The position numbers and the translations under genes are program-made. Positions 3,303-55,683 of a stretch of DNA of 64,000 bases are shown one piece after another (the first letter of the stretch is position 1; each line of letters opens with the position of its first letter). The stretch comes from Patescibacteria group bacterium. Its GTDB lineage: Bacteria; Patescibacteriota; Patescibacteriia; Magasanikbacterales; GWA2-37-8. Location: positions 111,929-175,928 of the forward strand of contig SCQK01000013.1 in assembly GCA_004321885.1 (NCBI GenBank), given 5' to 3'. Under the pieces are notes generated by a model that had not been told where the DNA came from, ran no database searches, and saw nothing but the letters and a program-made list of their open reading frames with translations.

Positions 3303-5405
3303 TTATGTATGGGATTGCTTCCCGCCAGAGGCGGGCAGGCGCTCTTCGCTCGCAATGACATTTTTTTTATGCCCCAAAAACATCCAATTGCCATACTCAT
3401 TGAACCAGCGGAAAACAATGCGGATATTGATGCGGGTAACGGTAATGGCCGTAAACATGGAGACCAACGTGCCGATGGCCAACGTGACGGCAAAGCCCTG
3501 CACAAACCCGGTGCCAAACCATATAAGGAATCCGCAACTGATAAGGGTGGTGATATTGCTGTCGCGAATGGACGGCCAGGCGCGCGCGAACGACTCCTCG
3601 GCCGCCGACAGCAAACTGCGGCCATTGCGTAATTCTTCTTTCATGCGCTCAAACACCAGCACATTGGCGTCTACGGCCATACCGATAGACAAAATAAAGC
3701 CGGCAATGCCCGACAAGGTTAAAGTTACTCCGATAATCTTAAAGATGGCCAAACTTAAAAGGGCGTAGACGAGCAGAGAAACATTGGCCAACAAGCCGGG
3801 AAAGCGATAATAGCCAATCATGAAAAGCAAAACTAAAATCAAACCAACAATGCCGGCGAAAAAACTTTTACGCAGATACTCGGAACCCAAAGTGGCGTCC
3901 ACTTTCTGCTGGCTGATGAGGTCTACGGCCACGGGCAAAGCGCCGGCGTTGAGGCGCTGGGACAAAAGCCGCGCTTCGCCGAGCGTGAAACTGCCCGAGA
4001 TGACGGCCGAGCCGCTGGTGATGGCTTCGTTCACGCGCGGAATGCTAATGGGCTCACCGTCCAAAAATATGGCCACGTTCTTGCCCACATTGCGCGTGGT
4101 GATATCGCCGAACAATTTTGTGCCTTCTTCGTTGAATTGCAGATTGACCTGCACTTGTCCGGACTGATTATCCTGGGTTACCTCGGCGCGCTTGAGCTGC
4201 TTGCCCGACAAGCCCGAGCTTTTCCATTCCTCGGCCGGCGGCACGACATCGGAAGCCTGTTTAGTCTTCACGTACACGCGGGCCACCTCATATTCCCTGG
4301 ACGGCTTTTCATCTTTTTTGTAAATAATGTGAAAACCGAATTTTGTTTCCACCGCATTGGACACAGCGCCCTTGGGCATCGCGCCCGCCGCCTCTTCAAA
4401 CTCCGGCACCATTTGGCCCTTCTTAAACCAGCCCAGCTCTTCGCCGCGCACTTCCAATTTTTTATCCGGAGAATATTGCTGTACCAACTGGGCAAAATTG
4501 GCGGGCGACGCCTGGGCTTTTATTTCACCGGCTCTTTGGCGGGCCTGGTCTTTGTTCAATTTGCTTTCACACCCTTCGGCGCCGGCATAACAAACCAACA
4601 AGTGCGACGCGTTTATCATTTTTTCGCCGTCGCGGCCGGAGAGCCGTTTTACCACGTTCAAGCCGTCAAAACTTTTCACCAGGGTTTTGCCCGCCTGGCC
4701 GTCTTTGGCTTTCTCGGCCCAAGCAAAAATTTCCGGATAAATTTCTTTGGTAATAAATCCCAGATTGCCGCCCTTGTCTTTGCTGGCCTGGTCTTCGGAA
4801 TATTGGGCCGCGATTTTGCCGAAATCGGCCCCGGGTTTTAGGGCCGCGGTTAGAGCTGTTTTGGCTTTTTTATCGGCCGCGCTGTTAAAAACGTCCAGGT
4901 CTTTTTTTTCTTGGGGTGTCAAATCGCGGGCCGGGTCGTGATTTTCTTCCTTAAATTCCAGTATCGGAGTTTCGCCAATCATTTTGATGGCCTGATTGAC
5001 ATCGGTAACGCCGGGCAATTCCACAATCACGCGATAATCGCCGCCGACCTTGGTGGTTTGCACCAATGGCTCGGCCACGCCCAGGCCCCCGCGCACGCGC
5101 CGCTCTATCACGTCGCGCACGCCTTCCACGGCGTCGCCGCGGTCGCCTTCGGGAATGGTTTCTGTTTTGGCCTGATAAACCAAATGCGCGCCGCCCTGCA
5201 AATCCAGGCCCAGATTAAAGCCCTTATCCGGCAAGCGGGGCAAACCGATGTTGGCCGCGTTGTTGAGCCAGTCTATGCCGCGGTTGGCGAACGCCGGCAA
5301 AACAATAAGCAGGGTGGCAATGGCCAAAGCGACCACGCCGGCCGCGTGCCATTTTAATTTTTTCGCCGACGAAACCTTGTTGGAAATTTTTACTGCCATA
5401 AACAC
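3303..5405 (-). CDS. secD: protein translocase subunit SecD carrying two parvulin-type PPIase domains in the periplasmic P1 head
   Basis: 700 aa. N-terminal TM plus the P1 head (GLDLQGGAHLVYQA) and a C-terminal six-TM SecD core. Two rotamase-like segments lie in between: a weaker one (FGKIAAQYSEDQASKDKGGNLGFITKEIYPEIF) and a clear one (ASHLLVCYAG...ELGWFKKGQMVPEFEEAA...KFGFHIIYK). Confidence 0.85.
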   Translation of the reverse strand: MFMAVKISNKVSSAKKLKWHAAGVVALAIATLLIVLPAFANRGIDWLNNAANIGLPRLPDKGFNLGLDLQGGAHLVYQAKTETIPEGDRGDAVEGVRDVIERRVRGGLGVAEPLVQTTKVGGDYRVIVELPGVTDVNQAIKMIGETPILEFKEENHDPARDLTPQEKKDLDVFNSAADKKAKTALTAALKPGADFGKIAAQYSEDQASKDKGGNLGFITKEIYPEIFAWAEKAKDGQAGKTLVKSFDGLNVVKRLSGRDGEKMINASHLLVCYAGAEGCESKLNKDQARQRAGEIKAQASPANFAQLVQQYSPDKKLEVRGEELGWFKKGQMVPEFEEAAGAMPKGAVSNAVETKFGFHIIYKKDEKPSREYEVARVYVKTKQASDVVPPAEEWKSSGLSGKQLKRAEVTQDNQSGQVQVNLQFNEEGTKLFGDITTRNVGKNVAIFLDGEPISIPRVNEAITSGSAVISGSFTLGEARLLSQRLNAGALPVAVDLISQQKVDATLGSEYLRKSFFAGIVGLILVLLFMIGYYRFPGLLANVSLLVYALLSLAIFKIIGVTLTLSGIAGFILSIGMAVDANVLVFERMKEELRNGRSLLSAAEESFARAWPSIRDSNITTLISCGFLIWFGTGFVQGFAVTLAIGTLVSMFTAITVTRINIRIVFRWFNEYGNWMFLGHKKNVIASEERLPASGGKQSHT

Positions 5406-7273: not shown

Positions 7274-10117
7274 TTACTGGCCGTGACAGCGCTTGTATTT
7301 CTTCCCGCTGCCGCAAGGGCAAGGGTCGTTGCGGCCCACCACTTTGCCGGCCTCGTCGCGCACTTTTTTCCCGGCCGGCGCGGCGCCGTTGTCGCTGGTC
7401 TTGCTGGCCCCGCTAAACATCAGATTCCCCGCCTGCATCACCGACGGCGCTATCTGTATTCCCAAATTTACTTTATAAACCAAATACACCACTTCTTTTT
7501 GAATGTAATTAAGCAGTTCGTTGAACATCCGGTAGGTTTCTTTTTTGTATTCCACCAGCGGGTCGTGCTGGGCATAGCCGCGCAGGCCAATGCCGGTGCG
7601 CAAATAATCCACGGCCACCAAATGTTCCACCCACAGATTGTCTATGGCGCGCAGCAATACTTGTTTTTCTATCTCGGCCATCATCTCGGGCGGGGCTTGT
7701 TTGACCAGCAGTTCCTCGTATTTATACTTGGCCGTTTCTATCAAAAATTCTATGAGTTGCGTCCTAATCGTAACATCATCAACCCGCCCGCCCACCGGCG
7801 GGGCGCCAAATTCTCCGATTTTTTTCTTTTCATCGTCAGACAGCGGGAAAATGGTCGTCATTGTTTCGGCAATTTCTTTCACATTCCAGTCACTGCGGTC
7901 TTCGGCGTTGGTATGGAACGAAACCACCTCTTCAATTTCCTGTTCTATCATTTCCAAAATCATGACGCGCAAATTTTTTACCCCCTCTTTCGTCTCCCCC
8001 TTATCAAGGGGGAGAGAAGCGGTGGACGTCTCCGCCATATCACGAGAGAGAGAAGCGGTTGATTCAAAAGCGCGCAATACCTCGCGCCGTTTGCCGTAAA
8101 TCACCTCGCGGTGCTTGTTGAGCACGTCATCGTACTCCAGCAAATGTTTGCGCGTGTCAAAATGCAAACCCTCCACTTTGCGCTGGGCGCTTTCTATAAT
8201 GCGCGTAATCATCCCCTGCTCTATGGGCATGTCATCTGGCACTTTAAGGGCGTTCATTACCCCGCGTATTCTGTCGCCGGCAAAAATACGCATCAGGTCG
8301 TCTTCGGTGGAAAGGAAAAATTGCGACTGCCCCGGGTCGCCCTGGCGCCCGCTGCGGCCGCGCAACTGGTTGTCTATACGCCGGCTCTCGTGGCGCTCGG
8401 TGCCCAGCACAAACAAACCGCCGGCCGCGCGCACGCGCCCGGCTTCTTCGGGTACAGGCGGATTACCGCCCAAAATTATATCCACTCCCCTGCCGGCCAT
8501 GTTGGTGGCCAGGGTCACGCGCCCGGGCTGGCCGGCCTGCGCGATTATCTCGCCCTCGCGCTCATGATTCTTGGCGTTTAGAATTTCATGCGCTATTCCC
8601 TCTCTTTGCAAATGCAAACTCAAGGCCTCGTTTTTCTCCACTGATACCGTGCCTATCAAAACCGGCTGGCCCTTGGCCTGTAATTCTTTTACCATCTGGG
8701 CGATGGCCTTGTGCTTGGCCTCTTCGGTTTTATAAATCCTGTCCGGAAAATTCGTGCGCTGGCTGGGTTTGTTCGGCGGAATTACCACCACTTCCAGTTT
8801 GTAAATTTTGCCGAACTCTTCGGCCTCGGTGACGGCCGTGCCGGTCATGCCCGACAGCTTTTCGTACAAACGGAAATAATTTTGAAAAGTAACCGTGGCC
8901 ATGGTCTGACTTTCATGTTGAATGACCACGTTTTCTTTGGCTTCTATGGCCTGATGCAAGCCCTCGCTATAGCGGCGGCCCGGCATTTTGCGGCCGGTAA
9001 ATTCGTCCACTATGAGCACCTCGCTGTTTTCCACGATATAGTCGCGGTCGCGCAAGAAAAGCGTCTGCGCCCGCAAAGCCTGCTCCACGTGGTGCACGGT
9101 ACGCACCCCGCCCTCGGCGTAAATATTGTCCACGCCCAGCCATTTTTCCATTTTAGCGATGCCGGCTTCGGAAAGCGTGGCCGAGCGCATTTTTTCGTCT
9201 ATGTTAAAGTCCTCGTTTTCTTTCAAGCGGCGCACCAGCTCGGCGAATTTGTAATACATGTCGGCCGCTTTTTCGGCCGGCGCGGAAATAATCAAGGGGG
9301 TGCGGGCTTCGTCTATTAAAATGGAGTCAACCTCGTCCACGATGGCGTAAAAAAACGGCCGCTGTACCATCTCGCTCAAATTTTGCACCATGTTGTCGCG
9401 CAAATAATCAAAGCCATATTCGTTGTTGGTGCCATAAGTGACGTCGCAGCCGTAGGCCTCTTGGCGCGAGCAGGGTTCCAAAAATTCCGTTTCCACTTTG
9501 TACATTCCTTTGGCGTCGCGTTCTTTGTCTGCTTCACTGCCCTCCTGTAACCCCACCCCCTGCCACCACACCAAAGATTTTGGTGTGGTGGCCTGCCCAT
9601 CCCCTAATAGGGGAGGGGTTTTTGCGTAGCGAAAAGAAACACCAAGCTGTTGAATCACGCCCACGCTCAATCCCAAAGCATCATATATCTGCCCCATCCA
9701 CACAGCGTCGCGTTTGGCCAAATAATCATTCACAGTCACCACGTGCACTCCCCTGCCGGCCAAGCCGTTTAGATACACAGGCAAGGTAGCCACCAGGGTT
9801 TTGCCCTCGCCAGTGCCCATCTCAGCGATAGCGCCGCTATGCAAAGCCATGCCGCCCTTTAGCTGGACGTCAAAATGGCGCATACCAGTCAAACGTTTTG
9901 ATGTTTCGCGCACCACGGCAAACGCCTCGGGCAAAATATCGTCCAGGGTGGCGCCGTCGGCCAAACGCTTTTTGAACTCATCGGTTTTGCCCCGCAACTG
10001 TTCCAAACTCAAAGACGCCATCCCGCTTTCCAGGGCATTGATTCTTTCCACGAGCGGCTTGTATCCGGCAATCACTTTCGCATTCGGGTCGCCAAAAATT
10101 CTGCTAAAAAAAGACAT
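7274..10117 (-). CDS. secA: preprotein translocase ATPase SecA (start at MSFFSRIFGD; the ORF track extends to 10228)
   Basis: N-terminus MSFFSRIFGDPNAKVIAGYKP. Walker A GEGKT, the DEAD-like motor, YGTNNEYGFDYLRDNM, and the C-terminal zinc finger CPCGSGKKYKRCHG. Two in-frame repeat-element insertions sit at 9563-9620 and 7978-8045. Confidence 0.95.
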   Translation of the reverse strand: MSFFSRIFGDPNAKVIAGYKPLVERINALESGMASLSLEQLRGKTDEFKKRLADGATLDDILPEAFAVVRETSKRLTGMRHFDVQLKGGMALHSGAIAEMGTGEGKTLVATLPVYLNGLAGRGVHVVTVNDYLAKRDAVWMGQIYDALGLSVGVIQQLGVSFRYAKTPPLLGDGQATTPKSLVWWQGVGLQEGSEADKERDAKGMYKVETEFLEPCSRQEAYGCDVTYGTNNEYGFDYLRDNMVQNLSEMVQRPFFYAIVDEVDSILIDEARTPLIISAPAEKAADMYYKFAELVRRLKENEDFNIDEKMRSATLSEAGIAKMEKWLGVDNIYAEGGVRTVHHVEQALRAQTLFLRDRDYIVENSEVLIVDEFTGRKMPGRRYSEGLHQAIEAKENVVIQHESQTMATVTFQNYFRLYEKLSGMTGTAVTEAEEFGKIYKLEVVVIPPNKPSQRTNFPDRIYKTEEAKHKAIAQMVKELQAKGQPVLIGTVSVEKNEALSLHLQREGIAHEILNAKNHEREGEIIAQAGQPGRVTLATNMAGRGVDIILGGNPPVPEEAGRVRAAGGLFVLGTERHESRRIDNQLRGRSGRQGDPGQSQFFLSTEDDLMRIFAGDRIRGVMNALKVPDDMPIEQGMITRIIESAQRKVEGLHFDTRKHLLEYDDVLNKHREVIYGKRREVLRAFESTASLSRDMAETSTASLPLDKGETKEGVKNLRVMILEMIEQEIEEVVSFHTNAEDRSDWNVKEIAETMTTIFPLSDDEKKKIGEFGAPPVGGRVDDVTIRTQLIEFLIETAKYKYEELLVKQAPPEMMAEIEKQVLLRAIDNLWVEHLVAVDYLRTGIGLRGYAQHDPLVEYKKETYRMFNELLNYIQKEVVYLVYKVNLGIQIAPSVMQAGNLMFSGASKTSDNGAAPAGKKVRDEAGKVVGRNDPCPCGSGKKYKRCHGQ
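9563..9620. repeat. CCACCACACCAAA...TTTGGTGTGGTGG hairpin plus CCCCTAATAGGGGAGGGG hairpin inserted in frame in secA (near-identical copy at 30724-30777)
   Basis: Encodes ...TPPLLGDGQATTPKSLVWWQGVGLQEG... in a SecA loop that is about 10 aa long in E. coli. Confidence 0.85.
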
Positions 10118-10248
10118 AGAACCACTAATCTTTTTCGCTAATCTCACTAATCGCGAACGCCGTAATTCTATCATATTTACGCGGAAAAGCAAGGGGTCGC
10201 GCGGTACACTGGCTCGCGCGATGAACAAATTTATGCTATAATATCCCC

Positions 10249-11970
10249 ATGGCCGAAAACATCTTTTTGCAAATAAGCCTGCTGTTGGCCCTCACGGTGG
10301 GCGCGGCTTTCATTCTGCGCCTCCTGCGCCAGCCCCTGATTATCGCTTACCTGGCCGTGGGCGTGCTGGCCGGCCCCATGTTTTTCAATCTGCTCAAAGG
10401 CGGGGCAAATGTTTACGACGCGTTCGCCAAAATCGGCGTGGTGCTTTTGCTGTTTGTCGTGGGCCTCAATCTCAATCTCGGCTATCTCAAAAAAATCGGC
10501 AAAGTGGCCATCATCACCGGCCTGGCCCAGGTTACGCTCACCGCTCTCATCGGCATGGCCATCTTGCAGGCGCTCAAATTTTCCCTGCTCTCTTCCATCT
10601 ATCTGGCCGTCGCCATCACCTTTTCTTCCACCATCATCATCACCAAGCTGCTCAATGAAAAAAAACACACTGAAAGCATGTACGGCCGCTATGTCATCGG
10701 CCTGATGCTGATGCAGGATTTTGTCGCCATTATTATAATGATGATTCTGGGCATCACCCGCCAGCAGGCCGAATTTTCCGCCGGCGCGCCCCTGGCCCTG
10801 AAAATTATTTTTCTGGCTGGCTTTATTCTGGCTCTAACAAAATACATTGCCCCCGCCATCTTAAAACGCGTGGCCGACTCCGGGGAATTTTTGTTTGTCT
10901 TTACCCTGGCCTGGTGCCTGGGCATCGCCAGCATCACCTATTGGCTGGGCTTTCCGGTGGAAGTCGGGGCCATCATCGCCGGCCTCACCCTGGGCTCAAC
11001 GCCCTATCAGCCAGAAATTTCCAGCCGCGTCAAACCATTGCGCGATTTTTTCATTGTTTTGTTTTTCATCATTCTGGGCGGCAGTTTGGAGCTAAACAAT
11101 TTGCGCGCTTCCCTCGCGCCCGGCCTCATTCTTTCGCTTTATATCCTCATTGGCAACCCGCTCATTCTTTACATCCTTTATCGCCTGCACAAATTCAACC
11201 GTCGCAACAGCTTTTTATCGGCCCTTACCGCGGCCCAGGTGAGCGAGTTCGGCTTTATATTGCTTTACACCGGCGCCGGCATCGGCCACCTGGGGAAAAA
11301 CGAGATTCCTGTTTTTACTCTGGTTGCCTTAATCACAATCTTCATTTCTTCCTACCTTATTACTTACAATGAAAGAATTTATCATTTTTTGAAGCCGTTT
11401 TTTGCCCTGTTCGGCAAAGACAACCGAACGCAAAAAGAAGACGATGCCGCCTCTTATGATGTCTGGGTCTTCGGCTATCATCGCATCGGCTGGAAGGTTT
11501 GCGAAGCATTGATTGAAAAAAAGATTAAATTCGCGGTGGTGGATTACAATCCGGAAATTATTTCCAAATTAAAAAAACGCGGGGTGCCCAGTTATTTCGG
11601 CGATGCCTCGGATATAGAATTTTTAGACGCCTTGCCTCTGGGCGAGGCTAAACTTATTATTTCCACTTTGCCCACGGTAGAAGACCAGCGCGCCCTGATA
11701 GCGCATGTAAAGCACAACGGCAAAATTAGACGCGGGCGGGCGCGCCAGGCCCCGTTTTTCATCGCCAGCTTGTACGACGACGCCTACCTACAGGAGCTGT
11801 ATGAAATGGGCGCGGATTATGTGATGATGCCGCATCTGCTGGGCGGCCAGCGCATTTACGATGTTTTGAAACGCGGGCATTGGGCCAAAGAAGGCTTGAA
11901 AAAATTAAGGCAGTACCAAAAAGACGAGCATAATTCGCGCTTTGAGGCGCTGGGCGCCCGCCATTGTTAA
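10249..11970 (+). CDS. CPA2-family cation:proton antiporter (KefB-like) with a C-terminal RCK/TrkA-N domain
   Basis: 573 aa with about 12 TM helices, followed by a Rossmann-type TrkA-N segment (VWVFGYHRIGWKVCEALIEKKIKFAVVD). Confidence 0.8.
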   Translation: MAENIFLQISLLLALTVGAAFILRLLRQPLIIAYLAVGVLAGPMFFNLLKGGANVYDAFAKIGVVLLLFVVGLNLNLGYLKKIGKVAIITGLAQVTLTALIGMAILQALKFSLLSSIYLAVAITFSSTIIITKLLNEKKHTESMYGRYVIGLMLMQDFVAIIIMMILGITRQQAEFSAGAPLALKIIFLAGFILALTKYIAPAILKRVADSGEFLFVFTLAWCLGIASITYWLGFPVEVGAIIAGLTLGSTPYQPEISSRVKPLRDFFIVLFFIILGGSLELNNLRASLAPGLILSLYILIGNPLILYILYRLHKFNRRNSFLSALTAAQVSEFGFILLYTGAGIGHLGKNEIPVFTLVALITIFISSYLITYNERIYHFLKPFFALFGKDNRTQKEDDAASYDVWVFGYHRIGWKVCEALIEKKIKFAVVDYNPEIISKLKKRGVPSYFGDASDIEFLDALPLGEAKLIISTLPTVEDQRALIAHVKHNGKIRRGRARQAPFFIASLYDDAYLQELYEMGADYVMMPHLLGGQRIYDVLKRGHWAKEGLKKLRQYQKDEHNSRFEALGARHC

Positions 11971-12030
11971 GTTTTGAATATTAAAAACTCGCACACGAAA
12001 ACATAGAAAAAGATATCCACAGCCCCGCGC

Positions 12031-12059
12031 TTGACACTAAGCGGGGTGTAAAGTATCAT
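12031..12059 (+). promoter_or_regulatory. consensus sigma70-type promoter (TTGACA-N17-TATCAT) driving the GC-rich island gene
   Basis: TTGACA at 12031-12036, a 17-nt spacer, then TATCAT at 12054-12059. It is followed by a ~110-nt leader with several hairpins (ccgtc-ggtt-gacgg, agggct...agccct, ctcgc-atga-gcgag) and GGAGAG 5 nt before the ATG. Confidence 0.5.
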
Positions 12060-12173
12060 ATACCGGCTTCGGAAAGTGGTAACGGGCCCATCCGTCGGTT
12101 GACGGAGAATTAGGGCTACGTGCCAATCCTCTAAAGCCCTCGCATGAGCGAGGCAACGAACAAGGAGAGACGG

Positions 12174-12557
12174 ATGGAAACCAAGACGCAGAAGGGGAAC
12201 CTCGCCGTGCCCGTCATCGCCCCCGACACGGACCAGCTCCAAAAGGCAATCTTCACGCACGAGCCCACCCCGATCGTCTACAAGAACGAGAAGGGCGAGC
12301 TGGTGCGCTGCTGGGCGGCCTTCAACGCCGTCCACGCCGAGACCGCCGACAAGAGCGTGTTCGTGCTGCGGGGCAAGATCGTGGCCGGCGACGCGAACTT
12401 CCTGCGCGCGCACGAGAACGCGGTGCGCCGGAACTACGAGGCGTCCCTCATCTACAAGCTCGGGCAGGACTACGCCCAGCTGGAGATGTGGGACAAGTCC
12501 GGCAAGGACGAGATCCCGCCGGGCACGTTCTCGAGCGACGACCACCGCGCGCGATAG
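12174..12557 (+). CDS. hypothetical protein (127 aa) in a very GC-rich foreign-looking island
   Basis: Start METKTQKGN, preceded by AAGGAGAG. Third-position GC is very high (GAG/CTC/GCC/CGC codons), unlike the rest of the window. A ~180-nt 3' UTR ends in the terminator gacc-cagcaacagca-ggtc-T6. The antisense 265-aa ORF 11967..12764 is a composition artefact. Confidence 0.55.
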   Translation: METKTQKGNLAVPVIAPDTDQLQKAIFTHEPTPIVYKNEKGELVRCWAAFNAVHAETADKSVFVLRGKIVAGDANFLRAHENAVRRNYEASLIYKLGQDYAQLEMWDKSGKDEIPPGTFSSDDHRAR

Positions 12558-12747
12558 CGCCACCGACAGAACCACGGCGCTAACCGCAACCGCACATTCC
12601 CACCAGTCGTCCCCTCCCCAATTCGGGACGCATCTCACAGTAGACTGTGAACCCCATCGCGACACGCGTCGCGGTAGCGCGGTTCCCTCTGCGAGACACA
12701 ACACAAGAGGCCCGACCCAGCAACAGCAGGTCGGTCTTTTTCGTTTA

Positions 12748-12776
12748 CAAAAAACCCCGCTCATTGCGGGGTCTAT
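12748..12776 (-). terminator. intrinsic terminator for the 12808..13449 gene
   Basis: On the minus strand: CCCCGCAATGAGCGGGG followed by TTTTTT. Confidence 0.6.
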
Positions 12777-12807
12777 AGCTTTATAACTTGATAACTTTCT
12801 ACTTCAA

Positions 12808-13449
12808 TCACGGTTCCACCAAAATCTGCGCCGCGCCGCCGCCATCGCACGTGATGAAGAACTTGCCCACATACTTGGCCGTGGCAATGGCGAAACCGTA
12901 TTTGGGCACATAGTACGACTGCTTGCCGAAAGCAACGGTGTGCGCCTTGGCATCGCGGTTGTCCAGCATAAACTGCTTGCCTTTTTTCATGGTCAAAGAC
13001 CCGGGCGTGCCTTTGCATTTATAAAACTGATAATAATACCCGGATTTGCGATAGATACTTAAAGCCTTAGTGTAACTTAATGTGGCCGAAGGGCTGACGC
13101 CTGTTTTAGCGCCAGTACCCGTAACACCACCTGTGCCTGGCACCGTGGATGCGGCGGTAGTGGCGGTAGTGGCGGTTTTATCCGTGGACGGCTGTTCCCC
13201 TGCCTCGGTAGTGGTCGCGGTCTGCTCTTCGCCCGGCGCCGGACTGACGGCCGGTTTCTTGCCCCATTTATTCCAGGCCAGCAAAGCCACCACAATCGCC
13301 ACAATCACGATAATTGTGGGCAGATTGCCTTTTTTGTCCGCCGGCGGCGCTTCGGGCGCCGACTGCCCGCCTGTTGGCGGGTTTCCCGCTCCGCCAACTG
13401 GCGGATTGGTATTTTGGTTGTCCATAAAGTCAAAAATTACATTACTCAC
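12808..13449 (-). CDS. membrane-anchored secreted protein with a T/A/P-rich linker (GTG start)
   Basis: GGAGGGAAAGT then GTG. N-terminal TM (LPTIIVIVAIVVALLAW), a low-complexity linker, and a ~100-aa C-terminal globular domain. TTGACT-N17-TATATT promoter at about 13455-13490(-). Confidence 0.6.
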   Translation of the reverse strand: MSNVIFDFMDNQNTNPPVGGAGNPPTGGQSAPEAPPADKKGNLPTIIVIVAIVVALLAWNKWGKKPAVSPAPGEEQTATTTEAGEQPSTDKTATTATTAASTVPGTGGVTGTGAKTGVSPSATLSYTKALSIYRKSGYYYQFYKCKGTPGSLTMKKGKQFMLDNRDAKAHTVAFGKQSYYVPKYGFAIATAKYVGKFFITCDGGGAAQILVEP

Positions 13450-13561
13450 ACTTTCCCTCCGCTATCATCAATATACCCCAACCCGCTCAAAAAGTCAACG
13501 ATTGCGGGATCCCCGCCGCGTTTACAAAAAATCCCCGACTTAGCCGGGAATTTTTTACTTG

Positions 13562-13632
13562 CAGGGGCTGAGGGAATCGGACCCCCAACTTCTCTTTTGG
13601 AGAGAGGTGTTATACCACTTAACTAAGCCCCC
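13562..13632 (-). tRNA. tRNA-Trp (anticodon CCA)
   Basis: Reverse complement: GGGGGCT-TA-GTTA-AGTGGTA-TAAC-A-CCTCT-CTCCAAA-AGAGA-AGTT-GGGGG-TCCGATT-CCCTC-AGCCCCT-G. It is followed on the minus strand by the hairpin CCCGGCTAAGTCGGGG plus T6 (13520-13550). Confidence 0.8.
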
Positions 13633-13649
13633 GAGAGGGGCGGCTCTTA

Positions 13650-13805
13650 TTATTTCGTCTCTTTGTGCATGGTATGTTTTTTGCAATGCCGGCAGAATTT
13701 TTTCATCTCCAAGCGGTTTTTGAGAGTTTTTTTGTTGCGGGTGCTGAAATAATTCGCGCGCTTGCATTGCGAGCATTCCAACTTGGCCAAATTATCTTGA
13801 GACAT
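13650..13805 (-). CDS. rpmG: 50S ribosomal protein L33, absent from the ORF track
   Basis: [51 protein letters not shown]. This has the typical L33 length, the CxxC...CxxC zinc ribbon and the KNxxxRLExKKyC motif. Confidence 0.9.
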
Positions 13806-13830
13806 AATAAAATATTAGGCTTGGTGGAGT

Positions 13831-13860
13831 GTAGCACACTTCACGCGAATTGTCAAAATT
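13831..13860 (-). promoter_or_regulatory. sigma70-type promoter for rpmG (TTGACA-N17-TACACT)
   Basis: Minus-strand reading TTGACAATTCGCGTGAAGTGTGCTACACT, about 25 nt upstream of the rpmG ATG. Confidence 0.55.
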
Positions 13861-13911
13861 ATTTCCCTCTTGACAACTCATACACAGGAGGTATGATAAA
13901 AGTAGACGAAC

Positions 13912-14127
13912 CTTTTATTTCATACTGTATGGGGACGCGAAAGTGCGGGCGCGCCTAGGCTAACCGAGGCGCCTCTTTACAAGGAACCGCTGGCTGAAAA
14001 ACAACCGGTTCGGGGCAAGAGTCCCGAAACAAGCGCTTGGCGCACGGATTGTTTTTCAACCCCAGGTCGGCTGGGTCTGCCCGCAGTGTAGAGTTAAAAA
14101 CAGTCCCGACTTAGTCGGGACTGTTTT
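13912..14127 (+). ncRNA. candidate ~215-nt structured small RNA, divergent from rpmG; class unknown
   Basis: Plus-strand promoter TTGACA (13878-13883), N16, TATGAT. The transcript begins GGGGACGCGAAAGUGCGGGCGCGCC, contains multiple GC hairpins, and ends at the bidirectional terminator cagtcccgac-ttag-tcgggactg plus a U-run (14101-14127). No ORF. Confidence 0.3.
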
Positions 14128-14133
14128 GGCGCG

Positions 14134-14395
14134 AGCCGATGAGCGGATTTGAACCGCTGACCACCTCCTTCGCTTATACTTTATATTGCTATAAAGACTA
14201 GACTGTATCTTTGGCTTATCCTTTACCGGACTTAGCCACCCTTGTCAGTCGTTCGCCCGCGATTAGCGGGACGGTCTTGTCCCAATTTATTTAGGGATAT
14301 TAACCGTTATTCGGGATTCACCACGATGTTTCCATCGTGATGGGCGAGGCTTGCGGCTCACCATGGAGGTGCTCTACCAACTGAGCTACATCGGC
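14134..14395 (-). tRNA. tRNA-Thr (anticodon GGU, tentative) interrupted by a 189-nt group I intron in the anticodon loop
   Basis: Exon 1 at 14360-14395: GCCGATG-TA-GCTC-AGTTGGTA-GAGC-A-CCTCC-ATGGT. Exon 2 at 14134-14170: AA-GGAGG-TGGTC-AGCGG-TTCAAAT-CCGCT-CATCGGC-T. Acceptor and anticodon stems pair perfectly across the insertion. The spliced anticodon loop is AUGGUAA. Confidence 0.75.
14171..14359 (-). mobile_element. group I intron (ORF-less) in tRNA-Thr
   Basis: The 5' exon ends in U and the intron ends in G. Contains CACGATG-GAAA-CATCGTG (GNRA hairpin), CCCGC-TAATC-GCGGG, a P7-like GACTG/CAGTC pair, and AAAGATACAGTCT resembling the conserved group I S element. Confidence 0.6.
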
Positions 14396-14400
14396 ATTTT

Positions 14401-15060
14401 CTAATTTTTTTTATTTTCCAAAATCCTCATTAATTCATCTCTCATTTTTTTATTATGGTAATAAACTGTTAAAACTCCATGTCTACTTTTTTCGCGATAA
14501 GTACCTTTTCTAACAGACATTGTTATCGTGCTTTTGTAAAATTGATTTTTATTTACCTTTATTTGCCCCTTCCAAAACCTTAGCGCTTCAGTCACTGAAA
14601 TGTCATTGAATAACTGAAGGCTAAACTTAAGGTCTTTTCTTCTAATGGAAAAAAATTTAACTAAAAAGTCAATAAATTTCTTGACCAATCTTGGGTCAGT
14701 ATTTCCCAACCTAACTGTGCATTTATCCGCTTTTGTTCCCTCCCCCCAGTATAACCCAAGTCCAAAACCATATAAAATTCCCTCTTTTAATGTATGTGGA
14801 TACTTTATGACAAATGGATCACCGTTTGGGTTATTTTTTTTGTAAATAGCTTCACTGATAGATCTACACGTAATCGAATATTTTTCCATCCAATAACGTA
14901 TTTTATTTACTGAACATTCGAAAATATTGGCAATTTCTTGTGCCGACTTTCCCTGATTTTGATATAATTTTTGCAAAACACCTTTGCTTATCATATCACA
15001 AATTATATCATAGCCGACTGAATAGTACAAGTAACCCCAAGTAGATAATATGGTTGTCAA
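14401..15060 (-). CDS. LAGLIDADG-type homing-endonuclease-like protein with an N-terminal HTH, free-standing between two intron-bearing tRNA genes
   Basis: 219 aa, TTG start 4 nt after AAGG. HTH segment GKSAQEIANIFECSVNKIRYWMEKYSI. Single LAGLIDADG-like motif LYGFGLGLYWGEGTK followed by the typical ...GNTDPRLVKKFIDFLVKFF helix. AT-rich (~33% GC). Spacers to the flanking tRNAs are 5 and 9 nt. Confidence 0.55.
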   Translation of the reverse strand: MTTILSTWGYLYYSVGYDIICDMISKGVLQKLYQNQGKSAQEIANIFECSVNKIRYWMEKYSITCRSISEAIYKKNNPNGDPFVIKYPHTLKEGILYGFGLGLYWGEGTKADKCTVRLGNTDPRLVKKFIDFLVKFFSIRRKDLKFSLQLFNDISVTEALRFWKGQIKVNKNQFYKSTITMSVRKGTYREKSRHGVLTVYYHNKKMRDELMRILENKKN

Positions 15061-15069
15061 TGAACCTTG

Positions 15070-15363
15070 TGGGTGGAGTAGGATTCGAACCTACGAAGGC
15101 AGAGCCAGCAGATTTCATTTATCCAAAAGTTTCCTTCTAGCATGGACTATATCTTTATCCTATCCGCCAATCTGGCCGATAGGATACTCTGGTATCTAGT
15201 CTCTACGGCGCCCCCGACTTTGCCGGGGTTCCCACGGTATTAGCATGCCCGCCAGTTGGCGGATTTAGCTTTCACCGTTATCCCAGAGAGTTCATCCTAA
15301 AGTTACCTTTAGGAGCTGCGTTTCAACACAGTCTGCTCCAGTTGACCACTTTGGTATCCACCC
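15070..15363 (-). tRNA. tRNA-Tyr (anticodon GUA, class II) interrupted by a 212-nt group I intron
   Basis: Exon 1 at 15328-15363: GGGTGGA-TA-CCA-AAGTGGTCAAC-TGG-A-GCAGA-CTGT. Exon 2 at 15070-15115: AAA-TCTGC-TGGCTCTGCCTTC (long variable arm)-GTAGG-TTCGAAT-CCTAC-TCCACCC-A. Spliced loop CUGUAAA. Confidence 0.8.
15116..15327 (-). mobile_element. group I intron (ORF-less) in tRNA-Tyr
   Basis: Carries AAAGATATAGTCC (group I S element), GAGACTAGATACC (R/P7-like) and AAATCCGCCAACTGGCGGG (Q/P4-like). The 5' exon ends in U and the intron ends in G. Confidence 0.75.
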
Positions 15364-16465: not shown

Positions 16466-17266
16466 TTACTTTTCCCTCCCTTTTATAAGGGGAGGGGCAG
16501 GGAGGGGTAGAACAGCATTCTTCGCGATGTCCAGCCATGTTTCCAGCTTGGCCGAAGCGCCCCCCACCAGCACGCCGGAAACGTTCTCGCATTTCAGGTA
16601 GCCGGCGATGTTTTCCGGCCGCACGCTGCCGCCGTACAAAATTATTACAGCAGCCGCAGGCAAAAGTTCAACGGCCAATTTATCTATAAAATTGTGCGCC
16701 ACGGCGCAGGCCTCCGTATCATCGCAAGCGTTGCCGGTGCCAATGGCCCATACCGGTTCGTAGGCGATAAAAAGCGGCCTTTCGTCTTCTTTCGGCCAGG
16801 CCAAATTTTGCAAAGCGGCCCGAAGTTGGATTTCCAAAACTTCCTCTGTCTTACCCTCTTCTCTTTCCTTGGCTGTCTCGCCCACACACAGCACGGGCGT
16901 GAGTCCGGCTGCCAAAATCGCTTCCAATTTTTGCCTCACTTCATGATTGCTTTCGCCAAATTGATGCCGGCGCTCGGAGTGGCCGACCAGCGCGTATTCG
17001 CAACCGGCCGCCTGAAACATCTGGGCCGAAACTTCGCCGGTGTAGCCGCCCTTGTCCACCCAATAAACGTTTTGCGCGCCCACGCCGATGCCGGCGTCGC
17101 GCAGTACCTGGCCAGCGCTGTATAAAGAAAGCGCGCTTGGAAAAACAGTCATTTTCACGTTCGTCGGAAATTTTTCCGCCTCGCCGGCCAAAGCGTTGGC
17201 CAAAATATTGCTCTCGTCAAAATCCAAATACATTTTCCAGTTGGCGAAAAGATAAATTTGTTTCAT
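16466..17266 (-). CDS. tpiA: triose-phosphate isomerase with a repeat-encoded C-terminal tail
   Basis: FANWKMY, GHSERR, AYEPVWAIGTG and YGGSV motifs. The ATG overlaps the TGA of the upstream M16 gene (ATGA). The last 14 aa (LPLPAPPLIKGREK) are encoded by the CCCTCCC..GGGGAGGGG hairpin element at 16470-16510. Confidence 0.92.
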   Translation of the reverse strand: MKQIYLFANWKMYLDFDESNILANALAGEAEKFPTNVKMTVFPSALSLYSAGQVLRDAGIGVGAQNVYWVDKGGYTGEVSAQMFQAAGCEYALVGHSERRHQFGESNHEVRQKLEAILAAGLTPVLCVGETAKEREEGKTEEVLEIQLRAALQNLAWPKEDERPLFIAYEPVWAIGTGNACDDTEACAVAHNFIDKLAVELLPAAAVIILYGGSVRPENIAGYLKCENVSGVLVGGASAKLETWLDIAKNAVLPLPAPPLIKGREK

Positions 17267-20382: not shown

Positions 20383-21306
20383 TTATAATACAATCTTATC
20401 TATTTGCTTGCTTAAATTTTTTCCACTAGACATAAACTTTAACGTTGCGAGCAAATCTGTTTGTGTTTGTGACAACTTTTCACCTAAAATTTTATCTTGT
20501 TTGAATTTACCCGTATTTTCGCCATTTTTTTTCCGTTCTTTAAATGTTTTTGAGACGAAATGTTTGCCTAATTCCTCCAATAACGTCGCTCTTTCATTCT
20601 CACAATTTTTTATCCTTTCTTCGGCCATTGAATTATAATCCTCCGAAATTTCTATTCCTAAATAATCGCAACCCAATAATTTAGCCGCAACTAAAGTTGA
20701 ACCGCTTCCCGAATATGGATCCAAGACAACCCCTCTTTTTCCGTCTAAAACCGAAAAAATTGCTCTTGCCGGCAGAATCATCGGAAATGGCGCGGGATGA
20801 TTCACACATCGTTCCGGTGGAAATCGCCAAATAGACGTTAGTAAAGCATGTCTTGAGGCCAACTCCTCACCAATTTTATTACCTGCGGGCTTATGCAACC
20901 AGTAAATACGTTCATCTACCTGCCAGAATCGCCATCCTCTGATATTGGCTGCTATCATTCTATCCCAAATTATTTCCTGGCGCATGGTCCAATCCGATTT
21001 AGATAGCCAACTAATTGGATGTATCATCTCACCTTTTTCCCATCTCACTTTATGATTATAAAAAAAAGATCCGCCCGGTTTCGTTATACGAAAAATTTCG
21101 TTTAAAATTTCAACCTGTTCGTTTTGATACTCTTCTTCATTCTTGGCGTCACTAATCGCATTATACAAAACATTTTTTACAAGCCAACCCTTATTTTTTT
21201 CCTTTTTATTATAAGGGGGTGAAGTAACGCAAACATCTATGATATTTGAATCAATCGTCTTTAAAATATCTAATGTATTACCTTGTAAAATCTGATTGAC
21301 TCTCAT
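20383..21306 (-). CDS. site-specific DNA methyltransferase (beta-class N6A/N4C, DPPY) with a ~70-aa C-terminal extension
   Basis: DVCVTSPPY (motif IV) precedes the AdoMet motif DPYSGSGSTLVAAKLLG, in beta-class order. AT-rich (~33% GC). The start overlaps the upstream ORF's stop (ATGA). Confidence 0.8.
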   Translation of the reverse strand: MRVNQILQGNTLDILKTIDSNIIDVCVTSPPYNKKEKNKGWLVKNVLYNAISDAKNEEEYQNEQVEILNEIFRITKPGGSFFYNHKVRWEKGEMIHPISWLSKSDWTMRQEIIWDRMIAANIRGWRFWQVDERIYWLHKPAGNKIGEELASRHALLTSIWRFPPERCVNHPAPFPMILPARAIFSVLDGKRGVVLDPYSGSGSTLVAAKLLGCDYLGIEISEDYNSMAEERIKNCENERATLLEELGKHFVSKTFKERKKNGENTGKFKQDKILGEKLSQTQTDLLATLKFMSSGKNLSKQIDKIVL

Positions 21307-21980
21307 TTTGCCTTTTCGGTTAAAAAATTATAAAATTTTCCGTTAAAATTGGAACGATTATCTTTTAGAGCCTTTACGTTAATATAAACGATTTTTAATT
21401 TTTTGCAATTTTGATAATCCCGAAAACCAAAGGAAGCACTTCGTAAAAAAGTCCCCTTCTCTCGACTCTTATTTTTGAATCTTTTCTTTAATTTAAGCTT
21501 CAAACAGCTTGTAAATCCCTCGTTACAAAAAGGAAATTCCAAAATATAAATTAATTGCCCGTCAATAAAACCGCTAACCAAAATGTTTAGATTTGCCGCT
21601 AAATCTTTTTTAAGCCGCTCCGGTGTATAATCAGTGAAATTGCCACCTCCGTCAAGTTTTCTCGGCGTCTTACGATTATTATTATCGCCGGTACAAATAT
21701 TTCTCGGTTTTGCTTCACAAGCAATAAATTCACCGCCGATACTCACACTTTGTTTAAAACCATTGTAACCTATTTTTTTGTTGCTGTGCGTATAGCCAGC
21801 CAAAGTTATCGTAATGAATTCTCTAATAGTAGAAGAATTTTTATCATTTATATAAATGGTAAGCAAATCATTAAATAACGATATTAAATCATCTTTAGAT
21901 TTATCCAACAAAAGAGCATTCAACTCCTTATGCGGTTTGGTGGCGTATGTAATTAAAATATCAGATAACGCGTTATTCAT
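21303..21980 (-). CDS. putative Type II restriction endonuclease, partner of the methyltransferase
   Basis: 225 aa, no recognisable family. Same AT-rich composition as the methyltransferase and translationally coupled to it. The pair is inserted between the housekeeping genes glyS and frr. Confidence 0.45.
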   Translation of the reverse strand: MNNALSDILITYATKPHKELNALLLDKSKDDLISLFNDLLTIYINDKNSSTIREFITITLAGYTHSNKKIGYNGFKQSVSIGGEFIACEAKPRNICTGDNNNRKTPRKLDGGGNFTDYTPERLKKDLAANLNILVSGFIDGQLIYILEFPFCNEGFTSCLKLKLKKRFKNKSREKGTFLRSASFGFRDYQNCKKLKIVYINVKALKDNRSNFNGKFYNFLTEKAK

Positions 21981-30224: not shown

Positions 30225-30704
30225 TCAGGACAGGCTCTTAAAAAGGGGCGGGCTGGATGGGGTCACCCGCGCTTCGCCGCTGTATTGGGGGGCGATGTAG
30301 CGGCCGGGTTTAGCTCTTTTGAAACGCGCCAGCGCCTGGGCCGGAGTCCAGCCGGGTTCCAGAGAGATTACCGGGATTTTCAGGGCGTAGGCCATGGTGT
30401 TGCCGAACGTAGCGGCCAGACGACTGGCGGTAAAACTCTCGGCGCCGCTCACCACCCCGATGCCTTTAATTTTTTTCAGCGGCAATTTTTGTTTTTTCAG
30501 GAATTTGTCAAATGCTTCCACGATGGATGTCCTATTACCACTAGATTCCCCCGTACTTAGTCGGGGGAATGACAATCGGGCTCCACAGGCCTTCGGCACT
30601 ATGGAGCCAGCGATAATTCCACAGGCCTTCGGCACTATGGAGCCAGCGATAATTCCGGAAACGCAAATAGCCCCTTCTTGGTTATTATCTACAATAAGAA
30701 ACAT
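30225..30704 (-). CDS. tsaB: TsaB (YeaZ)-like t6A-biosynthesis partner protein carrying an in-frame tandem-repeat insertion
   Basis: MFLIVDNNQEGAICVS...GIGVVSGAESFTASRLAATFGNTMAYALKIPV aligns with the TsaB N-terminal domain (compare GPGSFTGVRIGIGIAQGLA). A 2 x 36-bp tandem repeat (GIIAGSIVPKAC twice) and a hairpin replace the first beta-hairpin. Confidence 0.6.
   Translation of the reverse strand: MFLIVDNNQEGAICVSGIIAGSIVPKACGIIAGSIVPKACGARLSFPRLSTGESSGNRTSIVEAFDKFLKKQKLPLKKIKGIGVVSGAESFTASRLAATFGNTMAYALKIPVISLEPGWTPAQALARFKRAKPGRYIAPQYSGEARVTPSSPPLFKSLS
30583..30654. repeat. perfect 36-bp x 2 tandem repeat inside the tsaB-like ORF
   Basis: cacaggccttcggcactatggagccagcgataattc at 30583-30618 repeats exactly at 30619-30654. 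Each copy is itself hairpin-forming (ggctccacag / ctatggagcc). A related sequence is at 45485-45540. Confidence 0.9.
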
Positions 30705-30785
30705 AAAAAAAACCCACCCCCTGCCACCACACCAAAATCTTTGGTGTGGTGGCCTGCCCCTCCCCTAATAGGGGAGGGTAGCTCG

Positions 30786-55076: not shown

Positions 55077-55517
55077 TATAGTAGACGTTAAAAAGTGGAA
55101 GTTGTTACACTATTGTCATTCCGGTGTCATTCCTGGCTTGACCAGGAATCCACGGTAAAAACAGCGTGAATAAAAATTTACACCCAAAAAACAGGGCTAA
55201 ACCACTACACCTAAAAATTAGGTGCGGTGGTAAACCATACTGGGGTATAGTATAGCAGAAATATTAAAGATGGACAAGATAACTGCATAATGGGTCTGTC
55301 GCCGAATACCATTTCTACTGCAATTTCAGAATTATGGCCAAAATCGCCTCAAAATTTCAAGGGCTGAGACAAGTCAAAATTTATTTTGACTTGCGAAGCT
55401 CGCAGAAATTTGTAAGCTCGCTTCAAATTTTTGGCTCTTGCTGGCTCCATAGCGCTGCGCAGGCGGCTATTGCCGCCGCGCGGCCTGCGGAGCCAACTTT
55501 GTTAATTTTTCCAAAAA

Positions 55518-55624
55518 TTTGTATATACTACTCTATACAAATCGTCAAAATGGCTTCTTTTAACTAACATTAGCATAGAAATGGCACTTTTACGAAAAAA
55601 TTTGTATATACTACTCTATACAAA
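55518..55624. promoter_or_regulatory. two identical 24-bp palindromic boxes (TTTGTATATACTACTCTATACAAA) spaced 83 bp apart, upstream of the HTH gene
   Basis: Copies at 55518-55541 and 55601-55624, each preceded by an A5 tract and each an inverted repeat TTTGTATA-N8-TATACAAA. They sit in a 600-bp AT-rich intergenic region between divergent genes. Confidence 0.55.
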
Positions 55625-55646
55625 CGGTAGGTACGCAAAAAAAGTA

Positions 55647-55675
55647 TTGACTTTTCCGCCTAACTGTGGTATAAT
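55647..55675 (+). promoter_or_regulatory. sigma70-type promoter with an extended -10 (TTGACT-N17-TGgTATAAT); produces an essentially leaderless mRNA
   Basis: TTGACT at 55647-55652 and TATAAT at 55670-55675. The ATG at 55684 leaves no room for a Shine-Dalgarno sequence. Confidence 0.5.
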
Positions 55676-55683
55676 ACTTAATT

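Follow-up and report, generated by a model that had tools for sequence, protein, structure and literature searches.

A GC-rich single-gene unit, probably of foreign origin, between two convergent genes of an ultra-small Patescibacteria bacterium

Phages are known to carry morons (the concept of Hendrix and Juhala), which are lone genes of deviant base composition, each bringing its own promoter and terminator, located between conserved genes. The GC-rich island analysed here resembles them in that a sigma-70-type promoter and an intrinsic terminator belong to the gene itself, that the flanking genes are intact, that the product is an orphan, and that the composition is sharply unlike that of both neighbours. 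It differs from them in being located in housekeeping chromosomal DNA and not in a phage or prophage, in being GC-richer than its surroundings, and in having unusually long structured untranslated regions.

Patescibacteria genomes are documented to have received single genes by horizontal transfer (Gios et al., 2025, PMC12455944). The island shares with those transferred genes and small genomic islands the foreign composition, the streamlined CPR genome and the single-gene scale. They were, however, recognised through homologues in donor lineages, whereas the island protein has no homologue among approximately 15 billion proteins. This brings it close to the species-specific prokaryotic orphans (Vakirlis et al., 2024, PMC11293555), which are likewise short, rare (here one sample), without homologues and with structures predicted at low confidence. 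Native orphan genes normally match the GC and GC3 of their own genome (PMC11293555), but GC3 of the island ORF is about 3.9 standard deviations above the host mean, which argues against an origin in place. It should be noted that orphans derived from phages are usually GC-poorer than their hosts (PMC11293555); the island is GC-richer, which counts against such a source.

The leader of the island gene can be compared with translational riboswitches and other sequestor-anti-sequestor leaders. As in these, an element that is the complement of the start region can instead pair within a local hairpin, and the two predicted folds are nearly equal in energy. Unlike them it has no match among 4227 Rfam families and no identifiable aptamer, and its Shine-Dalgarno sequence is not sequestered.

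Organisation of the locus

The island was found in a stretch of 64,000 nucleotides, in the following called the window, from a Magasanikbacteria-related genome of an ultra-small Patescibacteria bacterium. It lies between the gene for a CPA2/Kef-type antiporter and a convergent gene for a membrane protein (Table 1). The first-pass annotation of the window had described a self-contained single-gene unit, and promoter, leader, ribosome-binding site, ORF, 3'UTR and terminator are all found where it had placed them.

Table 1. Features of the GC-rich island and its two neighbours (window positions)
Feature	Position	Strand	Basis or remark
CPA2/Kef-type antiporter gene	10249-11970	+	left neighbour
Left flanking hairpin CCCCGCG-cttgacactaa-GCGGGG	12023-12046		about 50 nt past the antiporter stop; loop holds the -35 hexamer
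Sigma-70-type promoter TTGACA-17 nt-TATCAT	12031-12059	+	consensus scan, 11/12 matches
5' leader, about 108 nt	12066-12173	+	fold prediction, 3-4 hairpins
Anti-start element CCAUCCGUC	12088-12096	+	perfect 9-nt complement of GACGGAUGG
Leader hairpin CCGUC-GGUU-GACGG	12092-12105	+	predicted fold
Leader hairpin AGGGCU...AGCCCU	12112-12140	+	predicted fold
Leader hairpin CCUCGC-AUGA-GCGAGG	12138-12153	+	predicted fold
Shine-Dalgarno AAGGAGAG	12162-12169	+	4 nt upstream of ATG 12174, read from sequence
Start-codon region GACGGAUGG, includes AUG	12169-12177	+	target of the anti-start element
ORF, 127 codons, METKTQKGN...DDHRAR, stop TAG	12174-12557	+	codon-position signal
3'UTR, 188 nt	12558-12745	+	four or five hairpins with C-rich loops
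Intrinsic terminator, core CCGACC/GGUCGG, then UCUUUUUCGUUU	12705-12745	+	fold and partial Thr_leader terminator alignment
Right flanking hairpin CCCCGC-tcatt-GCGGGG	12755-12771		A6 on the + strand side, T6 on the - strand
Membrane-protein gene, convergent	12808-13449	-	right neighbour

The genes examined around the island are housekeeping genes (SecA, SecDF, the CPA2 antiporter, L33, tRNA-Trp, TIM and others), and no phage gene is present within about 10 kb. No integrase, transposase, tRNA target or clear target-site duplication was found among the ORFs examined, the Pfam scan covering the window outside 25.9-49.2 kb. ARAGORN detected no tRNA or tmRNA in the island region, and no part of the island (template or variable repeat of a DGR, or any other repeat) has a second copy within the 64-kb window. 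The closest homologue of the antiporter is 68% identical, is followed by another gene and is not syntenic. In 80 GTDB loci with an antiporter (at most 58% identity) there is no synteny with SecA or the neighbours and no island. Neither an empty site nor an orthologous locus was found in the collections, which contain no close relative.

The promoter, noted earlier as near-perfect, is of a kind which is also present in other intergenic regions of this genome, and it lies in DNA of host-like composition (11971-12065, GC 0.41). Since the promoter is of host type and the DNA around it is host-like, part of the "cassette" may be host-derived. From the position of the promoter, transcription would start at about 12065-12067. 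The resulting leader has very nearly the 110 nt assumed before and is predicted to be structured as proposed, but its fold (MFE -39.3 kcal/mol) is only weakly better than that of shuffled sequences (z = -1.8, 10 of 200 folding equally well). The ribosome-binding site, which had been called strong, is indeed well placed in front of the ATG; the region from Shine-Dalgarno to AUG has a predicted unpaired probability of 0.58-0.69, and few parts of the 5' half of the full-length transcript are paired less. An alternative in-frame ATG at 12144 would give a protein of 137 aa; it is without a Shine-Dalgarno sequence and lies in a hairpin loop.

The 3'UTR, previously put at about 180 nt, is C-rich and poor in G and U (C 0.39, G 0.23, T 0.15). 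Its predicted MFE is -66.8 kcal/mol (z = -4.2), which none of 200 shuffled sequences reached, and it ends as expected from the earlier reading in a hairpin followed by the U-tract of an intrinsic terminator. A simple terminator scan missed this terminator, probably because its 11-nt loop is beyond the loop limit of the scan.

Composition, product and origin of the island

The GC content of the island peaks at 0.66-0.675 (200-nt windows, 12200-12700), compared with 0.505 for the whole window. The deviation is concentrated in the third codon positions of the ORF, where GC1/GC2/GC3 are 0.62/0.39/0.97 and where GC3 is 1.00 across 12250-12550, i.e. for 100 codons. The 44 host ORFs have mean values of 0.52/0.39/0.60 (standard deviations 0.06/0.05/0.09) and a maximum GC3 of 0.74, and the highest GC3 among 144 host windows of 128 codons is 0.77. 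Under host codon usage the probability of finding at least 123 G/C-ending codons out of 127 is 4.6e-24. The synonymous-site composition cannot stem from this genome's own codon usage. Composition and codon usage are thus atypical in the sense used for genomic islands (GC3 0.97 versus 0.60 ± 0.09), and the statement that third positions are almost all G or C holds. The figure of about 50% GC given for the remaining DNA is right for total GC, but not for GC3, which is about 0.60 in the host. The ORF is the sole stretch with such a GC3 in the 64 kb; the other compositionally deviant ORFs of the window are AT-rich and deviate in the opposite direction. The ORF has only four codons ending in A, each either among the first 25 or the final one, and their position towards the 5' end is what one would expect of a translated gene. 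The compositional maximum-scoring segment is 12136-12734, so that the island ends sharply on the right, at the terminator, and has a fuzzy left edge within the leader.

The 127-aa ORF, present as annotated at first, is deposited at NCBI as TAN33049.1, "hypothetical protein EPN28_03555", and no search assigned it to a family. A word-indexed search of 5.8 billion clusters gave nothing but the protein itself, and so did HMMER when run exhaustively on 1.84 billion representatives. Pfam gave no match at E <= 1 except the unrelated weak CTD8, there was no match in NCBIfam, PHROGs or PADLOC, and the PDB sequences gave no family match. Searches of phage and plasmid DNA with the island (blastn, tblastn) found nothing, 50,697 phage records being without similarity. 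Peptide-pattern scans of viral and metagenome contigs found no relative of the protein, exact and gapped patterns of the leader and the 3'UTR were absent from such contigs, and neither the window nor 82 fetched loci contain a paralogue. Seen in one sample, the protein is a strict orphan, and none of the searches revealed a donor or a relative, be it for the protein, the leader or the 3'UTR.

Two single-sequence AlphaFold2 models had pLDDT values of 46.6 and 55.7 and suggest, at low confidence, a helix followed by 4-5 strands and a long C-terminal helix. Foldseek comparison of the models with PDB and BFVD gave no match with E < 0.1 (TM <= 0.35 on the query) and was not usable. The coat genes of ssRNA phages have the same size of about 130 codons, and their RNA is similarly structured. 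The island protein gave no Pfam match to Levi_coat, a coat family of the Leviviricetes, and no such coat protein appeared among the PDB sequence matches with E <= 10 or among the Foldseek matches, this fold comparison resting on models of pLDDT 47-56, which are too poor for a fold test. An ORF of 265 aa on the antisense strand was considered as a gene and rejected: it is GC1-saturated, has no Pfam match and is a by-product. All first codon positions in its core are G or C, so that only ten amino-acid types occur there.

We consider it fairly probable that the island represents a real protein-coding orphan gene, present in a single copy and acquired horizontally, and that it resides as a complete moron-like cassette in an intergenic "safe harbour" between convergent chromosomal genes. 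Saturation of the third positions with G and C suggests that the synonymous sites of the donor, which could be a high-GC bacterium or a phage or plasmid of one, are very GC-rich, and that the transfer took place not long ago. The earlier proposal of a recent acquisition from a high-GC donor is borne out as far as the alien GC3 and the lack of paralogues and homologues are concerned; on the other side no donor was found, "recent" means a lack of amelioration only, and GC2 is host-like. In a genome of about 70% GC the classic codon-position relationships lead to an expected GC2 of about 0.50. GC2 of the island ORF equals the host mean of 0.39, and the simple picture of a gene from a high-GC bacterium therefore fits imperfectly. 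Such a GC2, together with the preference for Lys over Arg (10 versus 7 in the product), is not typical of genes native to a genome of that kind and counts against the reading preferred here.

A foreign cassette of this kind might work as follows. The near-consensus promoter, judged by its sequence to be of the type the host uses, would give a transcript of about 680 nt starting near 12066. The leader and the 3'UTR of this transcript are predicted to fold into stable hairpins which leave the Shine-Dalgarno sequence open. From the codon-position signal we infer that translation would start at ATG 12174 and yield a soluble protein of 127 aa, neither secreted nor membrane-bound, and transcription would stop at the terminator hairpin with its U-tract. 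Stabilisation of the mRNA would be the most plausible role of the 3' hairpins and of the base-paired 5' end. As an alternative prediction the 9-nt anti-start element could sequester the AUG and thereby form a possible on/off translational switch. Orphan single-gene cassettes typically carry accessory or conflict-type proteins of mobile-element origin, and by analogy the product might have a role in e.g. immunity, anti-defence or exclusion; this guess is a doubtful one.

Competing explanations and the leader RNA

The abrupt change in composition and the fact that the gene is a singleton known from one sample could suggest that a GC-rich contaminant has been misjoined into a Patescibacteria contig. 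An independently assembled Logan contig of SRR8426592 (4,820 bp) is 100% identical over window 9569-14388 and covers both junctions; it and the NCBI MAG contig (175,928 bp) are two assemblies of one read set, and their agreement base for base over the island and its junctions makes a misjoin by a particular assembler unlikely. A chimeric assembly had been named at the outset as what would refute the first reading. Moreover, a chimera would need two precise misjoins which leave an intact promoter-gene-terminator unit exactly between intact host genes and terminators, and we regard it as highly improbable. Hardly better is the chance that the unit is a non-autonomous hairpin-bounded element (an IS200/IS605-type PATE or REP-associated) with a passenger gene, or was inserted via duplication of a host terminator hairpin, which we hold to be very unlikely. 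The unit is bracketed by hairpins with the same 6-bp stem and by similar 3' flanks, which share GCGGGGTnTAnAG, and CCCCGC-N(3-14)-GCGGGG is rare, with three copies in the window (0.22 expected), two of which flank the island. Yet the unit and its ends are single-copy in the window and absent from the viral and metagenome scans, the ORFs examined include no Y1 transposase or TnpB, and each hairpin can be explained as the terminator of the adjacent convergent gene. The right one reads from its sequence as the intrinsic terminator of the convergent gene, and would also be a backstop for the island transcript. An integron gene cassette was ruled out, the attC cores R'' (RYYYAAC) and R' (GTTRRRY) being absent from both strands of 12541-12800 and the unit having its own promoter, which such cassettes lack. 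A different possibility is that the gene is native or long-resident, and that selection on a dual-function structured RNA/mRNA, and not descent from a donor, has kept the third positions saturated with G and C. The host-like GC2 would agree with this, and the whole transcript does fold far better than shuffled sequences (z = -5.8); the CDS alone has z = -3.9 versus codon-order shuffles and -2.55 versus synonymous-codon permutation (0 of 100 in each case), compared with -1.0 ± 1.06 for host gene windows. However, with one host window at the minimum of -3.3 the excess, though unusual, is not unique. Good folding is likewise predicted for the antisense strand (z = -4.4), so the structure signal is not strand-specific, and structure requires complementarity, not 100% G/C in third positions. 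As there is in addition no homologue in any relative, we find this explanation distinctly unlikely. Very improbable in our view is the idea that the G/C saturation of third positions and the excess pairing throughout leader, coding region and 3'UTR reflect a transcript which is, or descends from, a functional, highly structured RNA. The gene could then have been taken as DNA from an RNA replicon, the coat genes of ssRNA phages being one example, or it could encode a dual-function riboregulatory mRNA; in a milder variant of this idea it came from a high-GC host cell of the episymbiont. The argument for retro-capture from a foreign block coinciding exactly with the transcript is weakened, the left compositional edge being at about 12136 within the leader and not at the transcription start.

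For the leader of the presumed foreign gene the first-pass annotation had suggested a riboswitch or an RNA thermometer. The former suggestion is conceivable in a modified form. Scanning the whole window at Rfam gathering scores left the island region without a match, and a permissive scan (E <= 10, 11900-12850) produced terminator-driven noise and "hya" at E = 8.5 only, so the leader belongs to no Rfam family at that threshold. It does contain the unusual anti-start element; in 5000 dinucleotide shuffles of the leader a complement of at least 9 nt to the start region has a probability of 0.004. The element overlaps the 5' arm of the first leader hairpin, which makes the two pairings mutually exclusive, and the 3' arm of that hairpin, GACGGAG, mimics GACGGAU of the start region. 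The predicted ddG separating the two folds varies with the length of downstream RNA taken into account, from -2.9 to +3.4 kcal/mol, and lengthening of this RNA makes the MFE switch between them. The leader might thus be an uncharacterised riboswitch-like or protein-responsive translational switch, off when CCAUCCGUC pairs with GACGGAUGG and on when it is held in the hairpin, a ligand, a protein or an sRNA choosing between the folds. This would refine the main explanation and not replace it. Against a switch are the marginal z-score of the leader fold as a whole, the predicted advantage of 3.4 kcal/mol for the AUG-free fold in the full-length transcript, and the leader being without relatives, with no aptamer-like conserved core definable. 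The Shine-Dalgarno sequence is predicted to stay open in the alternative pairing, and the leader has no attenuator U-tract. On balance we judge such a switch to be unlikely, if worth keeping in mind. The thermometer finds no support in the predictions. A start region paired in the cold and melting open in the warm would be conceivable, as the anti-start pairing does form in some contexts, but where it forms, the AUG is predicted to be 100% paired at any temperature between 5 and 45 C, with the Shine-Dalgarno sequence 63-72% unpaired throughout this range. ROSE and fourU thermometers are built on weak helices, whereas the anti-start helix of 9 bp has six G-C pairs. A thermometer is extremely improbable.

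Implications for ultra-small symbionts

The island is a curiosity; it is not a new kind of system, it is a singleton, and by itself it leaves the current understanding unchanged. Its leader is a small candidate translational switch which can be tested. The codon signature could point to the donor or to a host in the same sample, and it would be a fingerprint of the episymbiont's high-GC host cell if the milder variant mentioned above were true. If the main reading, a horizontally acquired orphan gene, is true, the island would be a clean natural case in which the core chromosome of a streamlined CPR bacterium has taken up an entire foreign promoter-gene-terminator unit, whose composition is unusual in its direction, i.e. 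GC-richer than the host. It would then provide a concrete target for studying what ultra-small symbionts import and keep.

Composition and layout of the island

The window comes from a Patescibacteria MAG, on a contig of 175,928 bp, and the closest relatives of the antiporter next to the island come from Magasanikbacteria. The GC-rich single-gene island noticed in the first-pass annotation is confirmed; it is placed between two convergent genes and its ORF product is TAN33049.1 at NCBI ('hypothetical protein EPN28_03555'). The promoter is of the host type, since near-consensus sigma-70 promoters are present elsewhere in the host. Both flanking hairpins have the stem CCCCGC/GCGGGG followed by GCGGGGTnTAnAG. 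This likeness might stem from a terminator duplicated at insertion, and each hairpin is also simply accounted for as a terminator.

Features of the island and its flanks, followed by other features observed in the window
Feature	Position	Strand	Remarks
CPA2-type cation/proton antiporter	10249-11970	+	Na_H_Exchanger and TrkA_N domains
Left hairpin CCCCGCG-N11-GCGGGG	12023-12046		Read from sequence
Promoter TTGACA-17-TATCAT	12031-12059	+	-35 hexamer within loop of left hairpin
Leader, ~108 nt		+	Promoter to ORF
Shine-Dalgarno AAGGAGAG	12162-12169	+	Read from sequence
127-codon ORF	12174-12557	+	From ATG to end of TAG
3'UTR, 188 nt		+	C-rich, downstream of ORF
Terminator hairpin, then UCUUUUUCGUUU	12705-12745	+	
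Right hairpin CCCCGC-N5-GCGGGG	12755-12771		Read on the minus strand, textbook terminator of the convergent gene
213-aa gene	12808-13449	-	ORF call; hydrophobic (probable transmembrane) segment
SecD-like protein	3303-5405	-	PPIC-type peptidyl-prolyl isomerase (rotamase) domains between SecD_1st and P1-head; unusual fusion
Candidate unannotated small RNA	13870-14130	+	Host-type promoter TTGACA-16-TATGAT (13870-13897), then GC-rich ~230 nt closing with clean terminator hairpin (about 14098-14130)
Intron-bearing tRNA gene	14133-14395	-	189-nt intron; anticodon uncertain (gcg by ARAGORN, CAU by eye)
219-aa ORF	14401-15060	-	Very AT-rich (GC3 0.30); between the intron-bearing tRNAs
Intron-bearing tRNA-Tyr(gta)	15069-15363	-	212-nt intron, Rfam group I intron match 15123-15335
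N6_N4 DNA methylase and 225-aa ORF	20383-21980	-	GC3 0.32 and 0.30
Tandem repeat	30582-30653		36-nt unit, perfect duplication
Intergenic palindromes	e.g. 16470-16496, 56006-56032, 9549-9617, 30710-30778		CCCTCCCC..GGGGAGGG; CCACCACACC..GGTGTGGTGG inside 69-nt unit (93% identity between two sites)
aaatttgtatatactactctatacaaa x2	55500-55640		Upstream of consensus promoter and HTH_17 gene
Small HTH_17 (excisionase/MerR-like) gene	55684-56022	+	

The compositional anomaly is real: GC3 is 0.97 in the island ORF, against a mean of 0.60 in host ORFs. By codon position the values are 0.62/0.39/0.97 and 0.52/0.39/0.60 (n=44), respectively, and between 12250 and 12550 all third positions are G or C. The maximum among host 128-codon windows is 0.77, and no second stretch like the island occurs anywhere in the 64 kb. 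If the protein were encoded in the host's codon usage, the GC3 of its ORF would come to 0.61, and the probability of at least 123 of the 127 codons ending in G or C would be 4.6e-24. Synonymous codons ending in C and in G both occur, and the four codons ending in A are confined to the first 25 and the final codon; the pattern looks like natural high-GC usage, not a one-codon-per-residue design. The maximum-scoring compositional segment (12136-12734) has its right edge at the terminator and its left edge inside the leader, and the promoter region (GC 0.41) resembles host intergenic DNA.

The plus-strand frame is the coding frame. A 265-aa antisense ORF was rejected as a gene, as it merely reflects the missing A/T at forward third positions; its core uses just ten amino-acid types and it has no Pfam match.

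The other deviant ORFs of the window are AT-rich. The methylase and its neighbour, a 225-aa ORF with no Pfam match, form a second compositional outlier opposite in direction to the island and are probably an imported restriction-modification pair. The 219-aa ORF (no Pfam match at E <= 0.01) may be a putative homing-endonuclease-like gene. The two tRNA genes beside it, interrupted in the anticodon loop, were overlooked by default ARAGORN and called when introns were allowed. Beyond 13958 the candidate small RNA contains no ORF of 40 aa or more, and it has no gathering-level match in Rfam. The palindrome families, spread over the window, look like REP-like or terminator elements, and 55500-56022 may be a mobile-element remnant or a regulatory operator pair.

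The protein and its transcript

The island protein is a strict orphan. Among 5.8 billion protein clusters it matches only itself (E = 7e-80), in a cluster whose two members are the NCBI and Logan gene calls at this very locus, and an exhaustive HMMER search of 1.84 billion cluster representatives gave nothing further. There was no match under E = 0.09 in Pfam, PHROGs, NCBIfam, PADLOC or PDB sequences, none by tblastn (E <= 1) in phage and plasmid collections, none when viral and metagenome contigs were scanned with peptide patterns, and no paralogue in the window. A ssRNA-phage coat protein was considered; the sequence tests (Pfam, PDB sequences) came out negative. Two AlphaFold2 models built from the single sequence are of low quality (pLDDT 46.6 and 55.7). 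They agree in suggesting that a helix at the N-terminus is followed by four or five strands and then by a long C-terminal helix, and Foldseek against PDB and BFVD gave insignificant matches only. By inspection there is no N-terminal hydrophobic segment, so the protein is probably cytoplasmic.

The leader had been described as structured and as a possible riboswitch or RNA thermometer. It does fold into three or four hairpins, but the fold barely beats shuffles (z = -1.8), and the structure by itself is therefore weak evidence. The stronger RNA features are a start-region complement and unusual pairing over the whole transcript. CCAUCCGUC (12088-12096) is perfectly complementary to the stretch that takes in the start codon, GACGGAUGG (12169-12177); 0.4% of leader dinucleotide shuffles contain a complement at least 9 nt long. 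The 3' half of 12088-12096 can alternatively pair in a local hairpin, CCGUC/GACGG (12092-12105). The difference between the AUG-free and AUG-sequestered folds ranges from -2.9 to +3.4 kcal/mol with the length of downstream RNA that is included, and the predicted MFE flips between them; the Shine-Dalgarno is predicted to be open throughout. As predicted from a single sequence, the leader possibly has the parts of a translational switch. The thermometer idea finds no support, because the start-region pairing is predicted to be independent of temperature from 5 to 45 C, and a known riboswitch is excluded, no Rfam family matching the island RNA. An uncharacterised switch sequestering the start codon is a reasonable and testable hypothesis.

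Folding compared with shuffles gives z = -5.8 for the whole transcript and -4.2 for the 3'UTR; the coding region has -3.9 with codon-order shuffles and -2.55 with synonymous-codon permutation, and host gene windows have -1.0 +/- 1.06 (minimum -3.3). The G/C saturation may have arisen by selection on RNA structure. Folding is good for the antisense strand as well (z = -4.4), so the signal cannot tell which strand is functional. Capture of the island as a DNA copy of an RNA, matching the transcript exactly, is weakened by the fuzzy left compositional boundary.

Origin of the cassette

An assembly artefact, the chimera against which the first-pass annotation had advised a check, is improbable. 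The Logan assembly of run SRR8426592 also encodes the antiporter protein, and its 4,820-bp contig is 100% identical to 9569-14388, a span that takes in the island with its two junctions and the genes on either side; two assemblers working from the same reads thus agree on the island.

The reading with the best support is horizontal acquisition of an orphan gene in a complete moron-like cassette, that is, a single gene with its own promoter and terminator as in phage morons, between convergent genes, where insertion breaks nothing. Single-gene transfers into Patescibacteria are on record (PMC12455944). Native orphans usually follow genome GC and GC3, which makes an origin in place unlikely; phage-derived orphans are GC-poorer, and the GC-rich deviation is thus unusual in direction (PMC11293555). 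The foreign, self-contained unit first proposed is largely supported by codon usage and the complete expression unit, but no donor was found. The examined neighbours are housekeeping genes (SecDF, NUDIX, SecA, antiporter, L33, tRNA-Trp, TIM, M16 peptidase, RRF, MreB and others), with no integrase, transposase or phage genes near the island, and the rest of the window contains nothing that resembles it. The collections hold no close relative genome; the gene downstream of the best antiporter homologue (68% identity) is not the same as here, and synteny is absent from 80 GTDB loci with homologues at <= 58% identity.

A native gene of a ~70% GC genome is expected to have a GC2 near 0.5 from the classic codon-position relationships. 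The island ORF encodes more Lys than Arg and has a GC2 equal to the host mean; as the shortfall is ~2 sd for 127 codons, it is a caveat rather than a contradiction.

Its singleton status restricts what computation can teach about the island. Cassettes of orphan genes gained by horizontal transfer are a known kind of thing; this one is unusually clean and unusually GC-rich.
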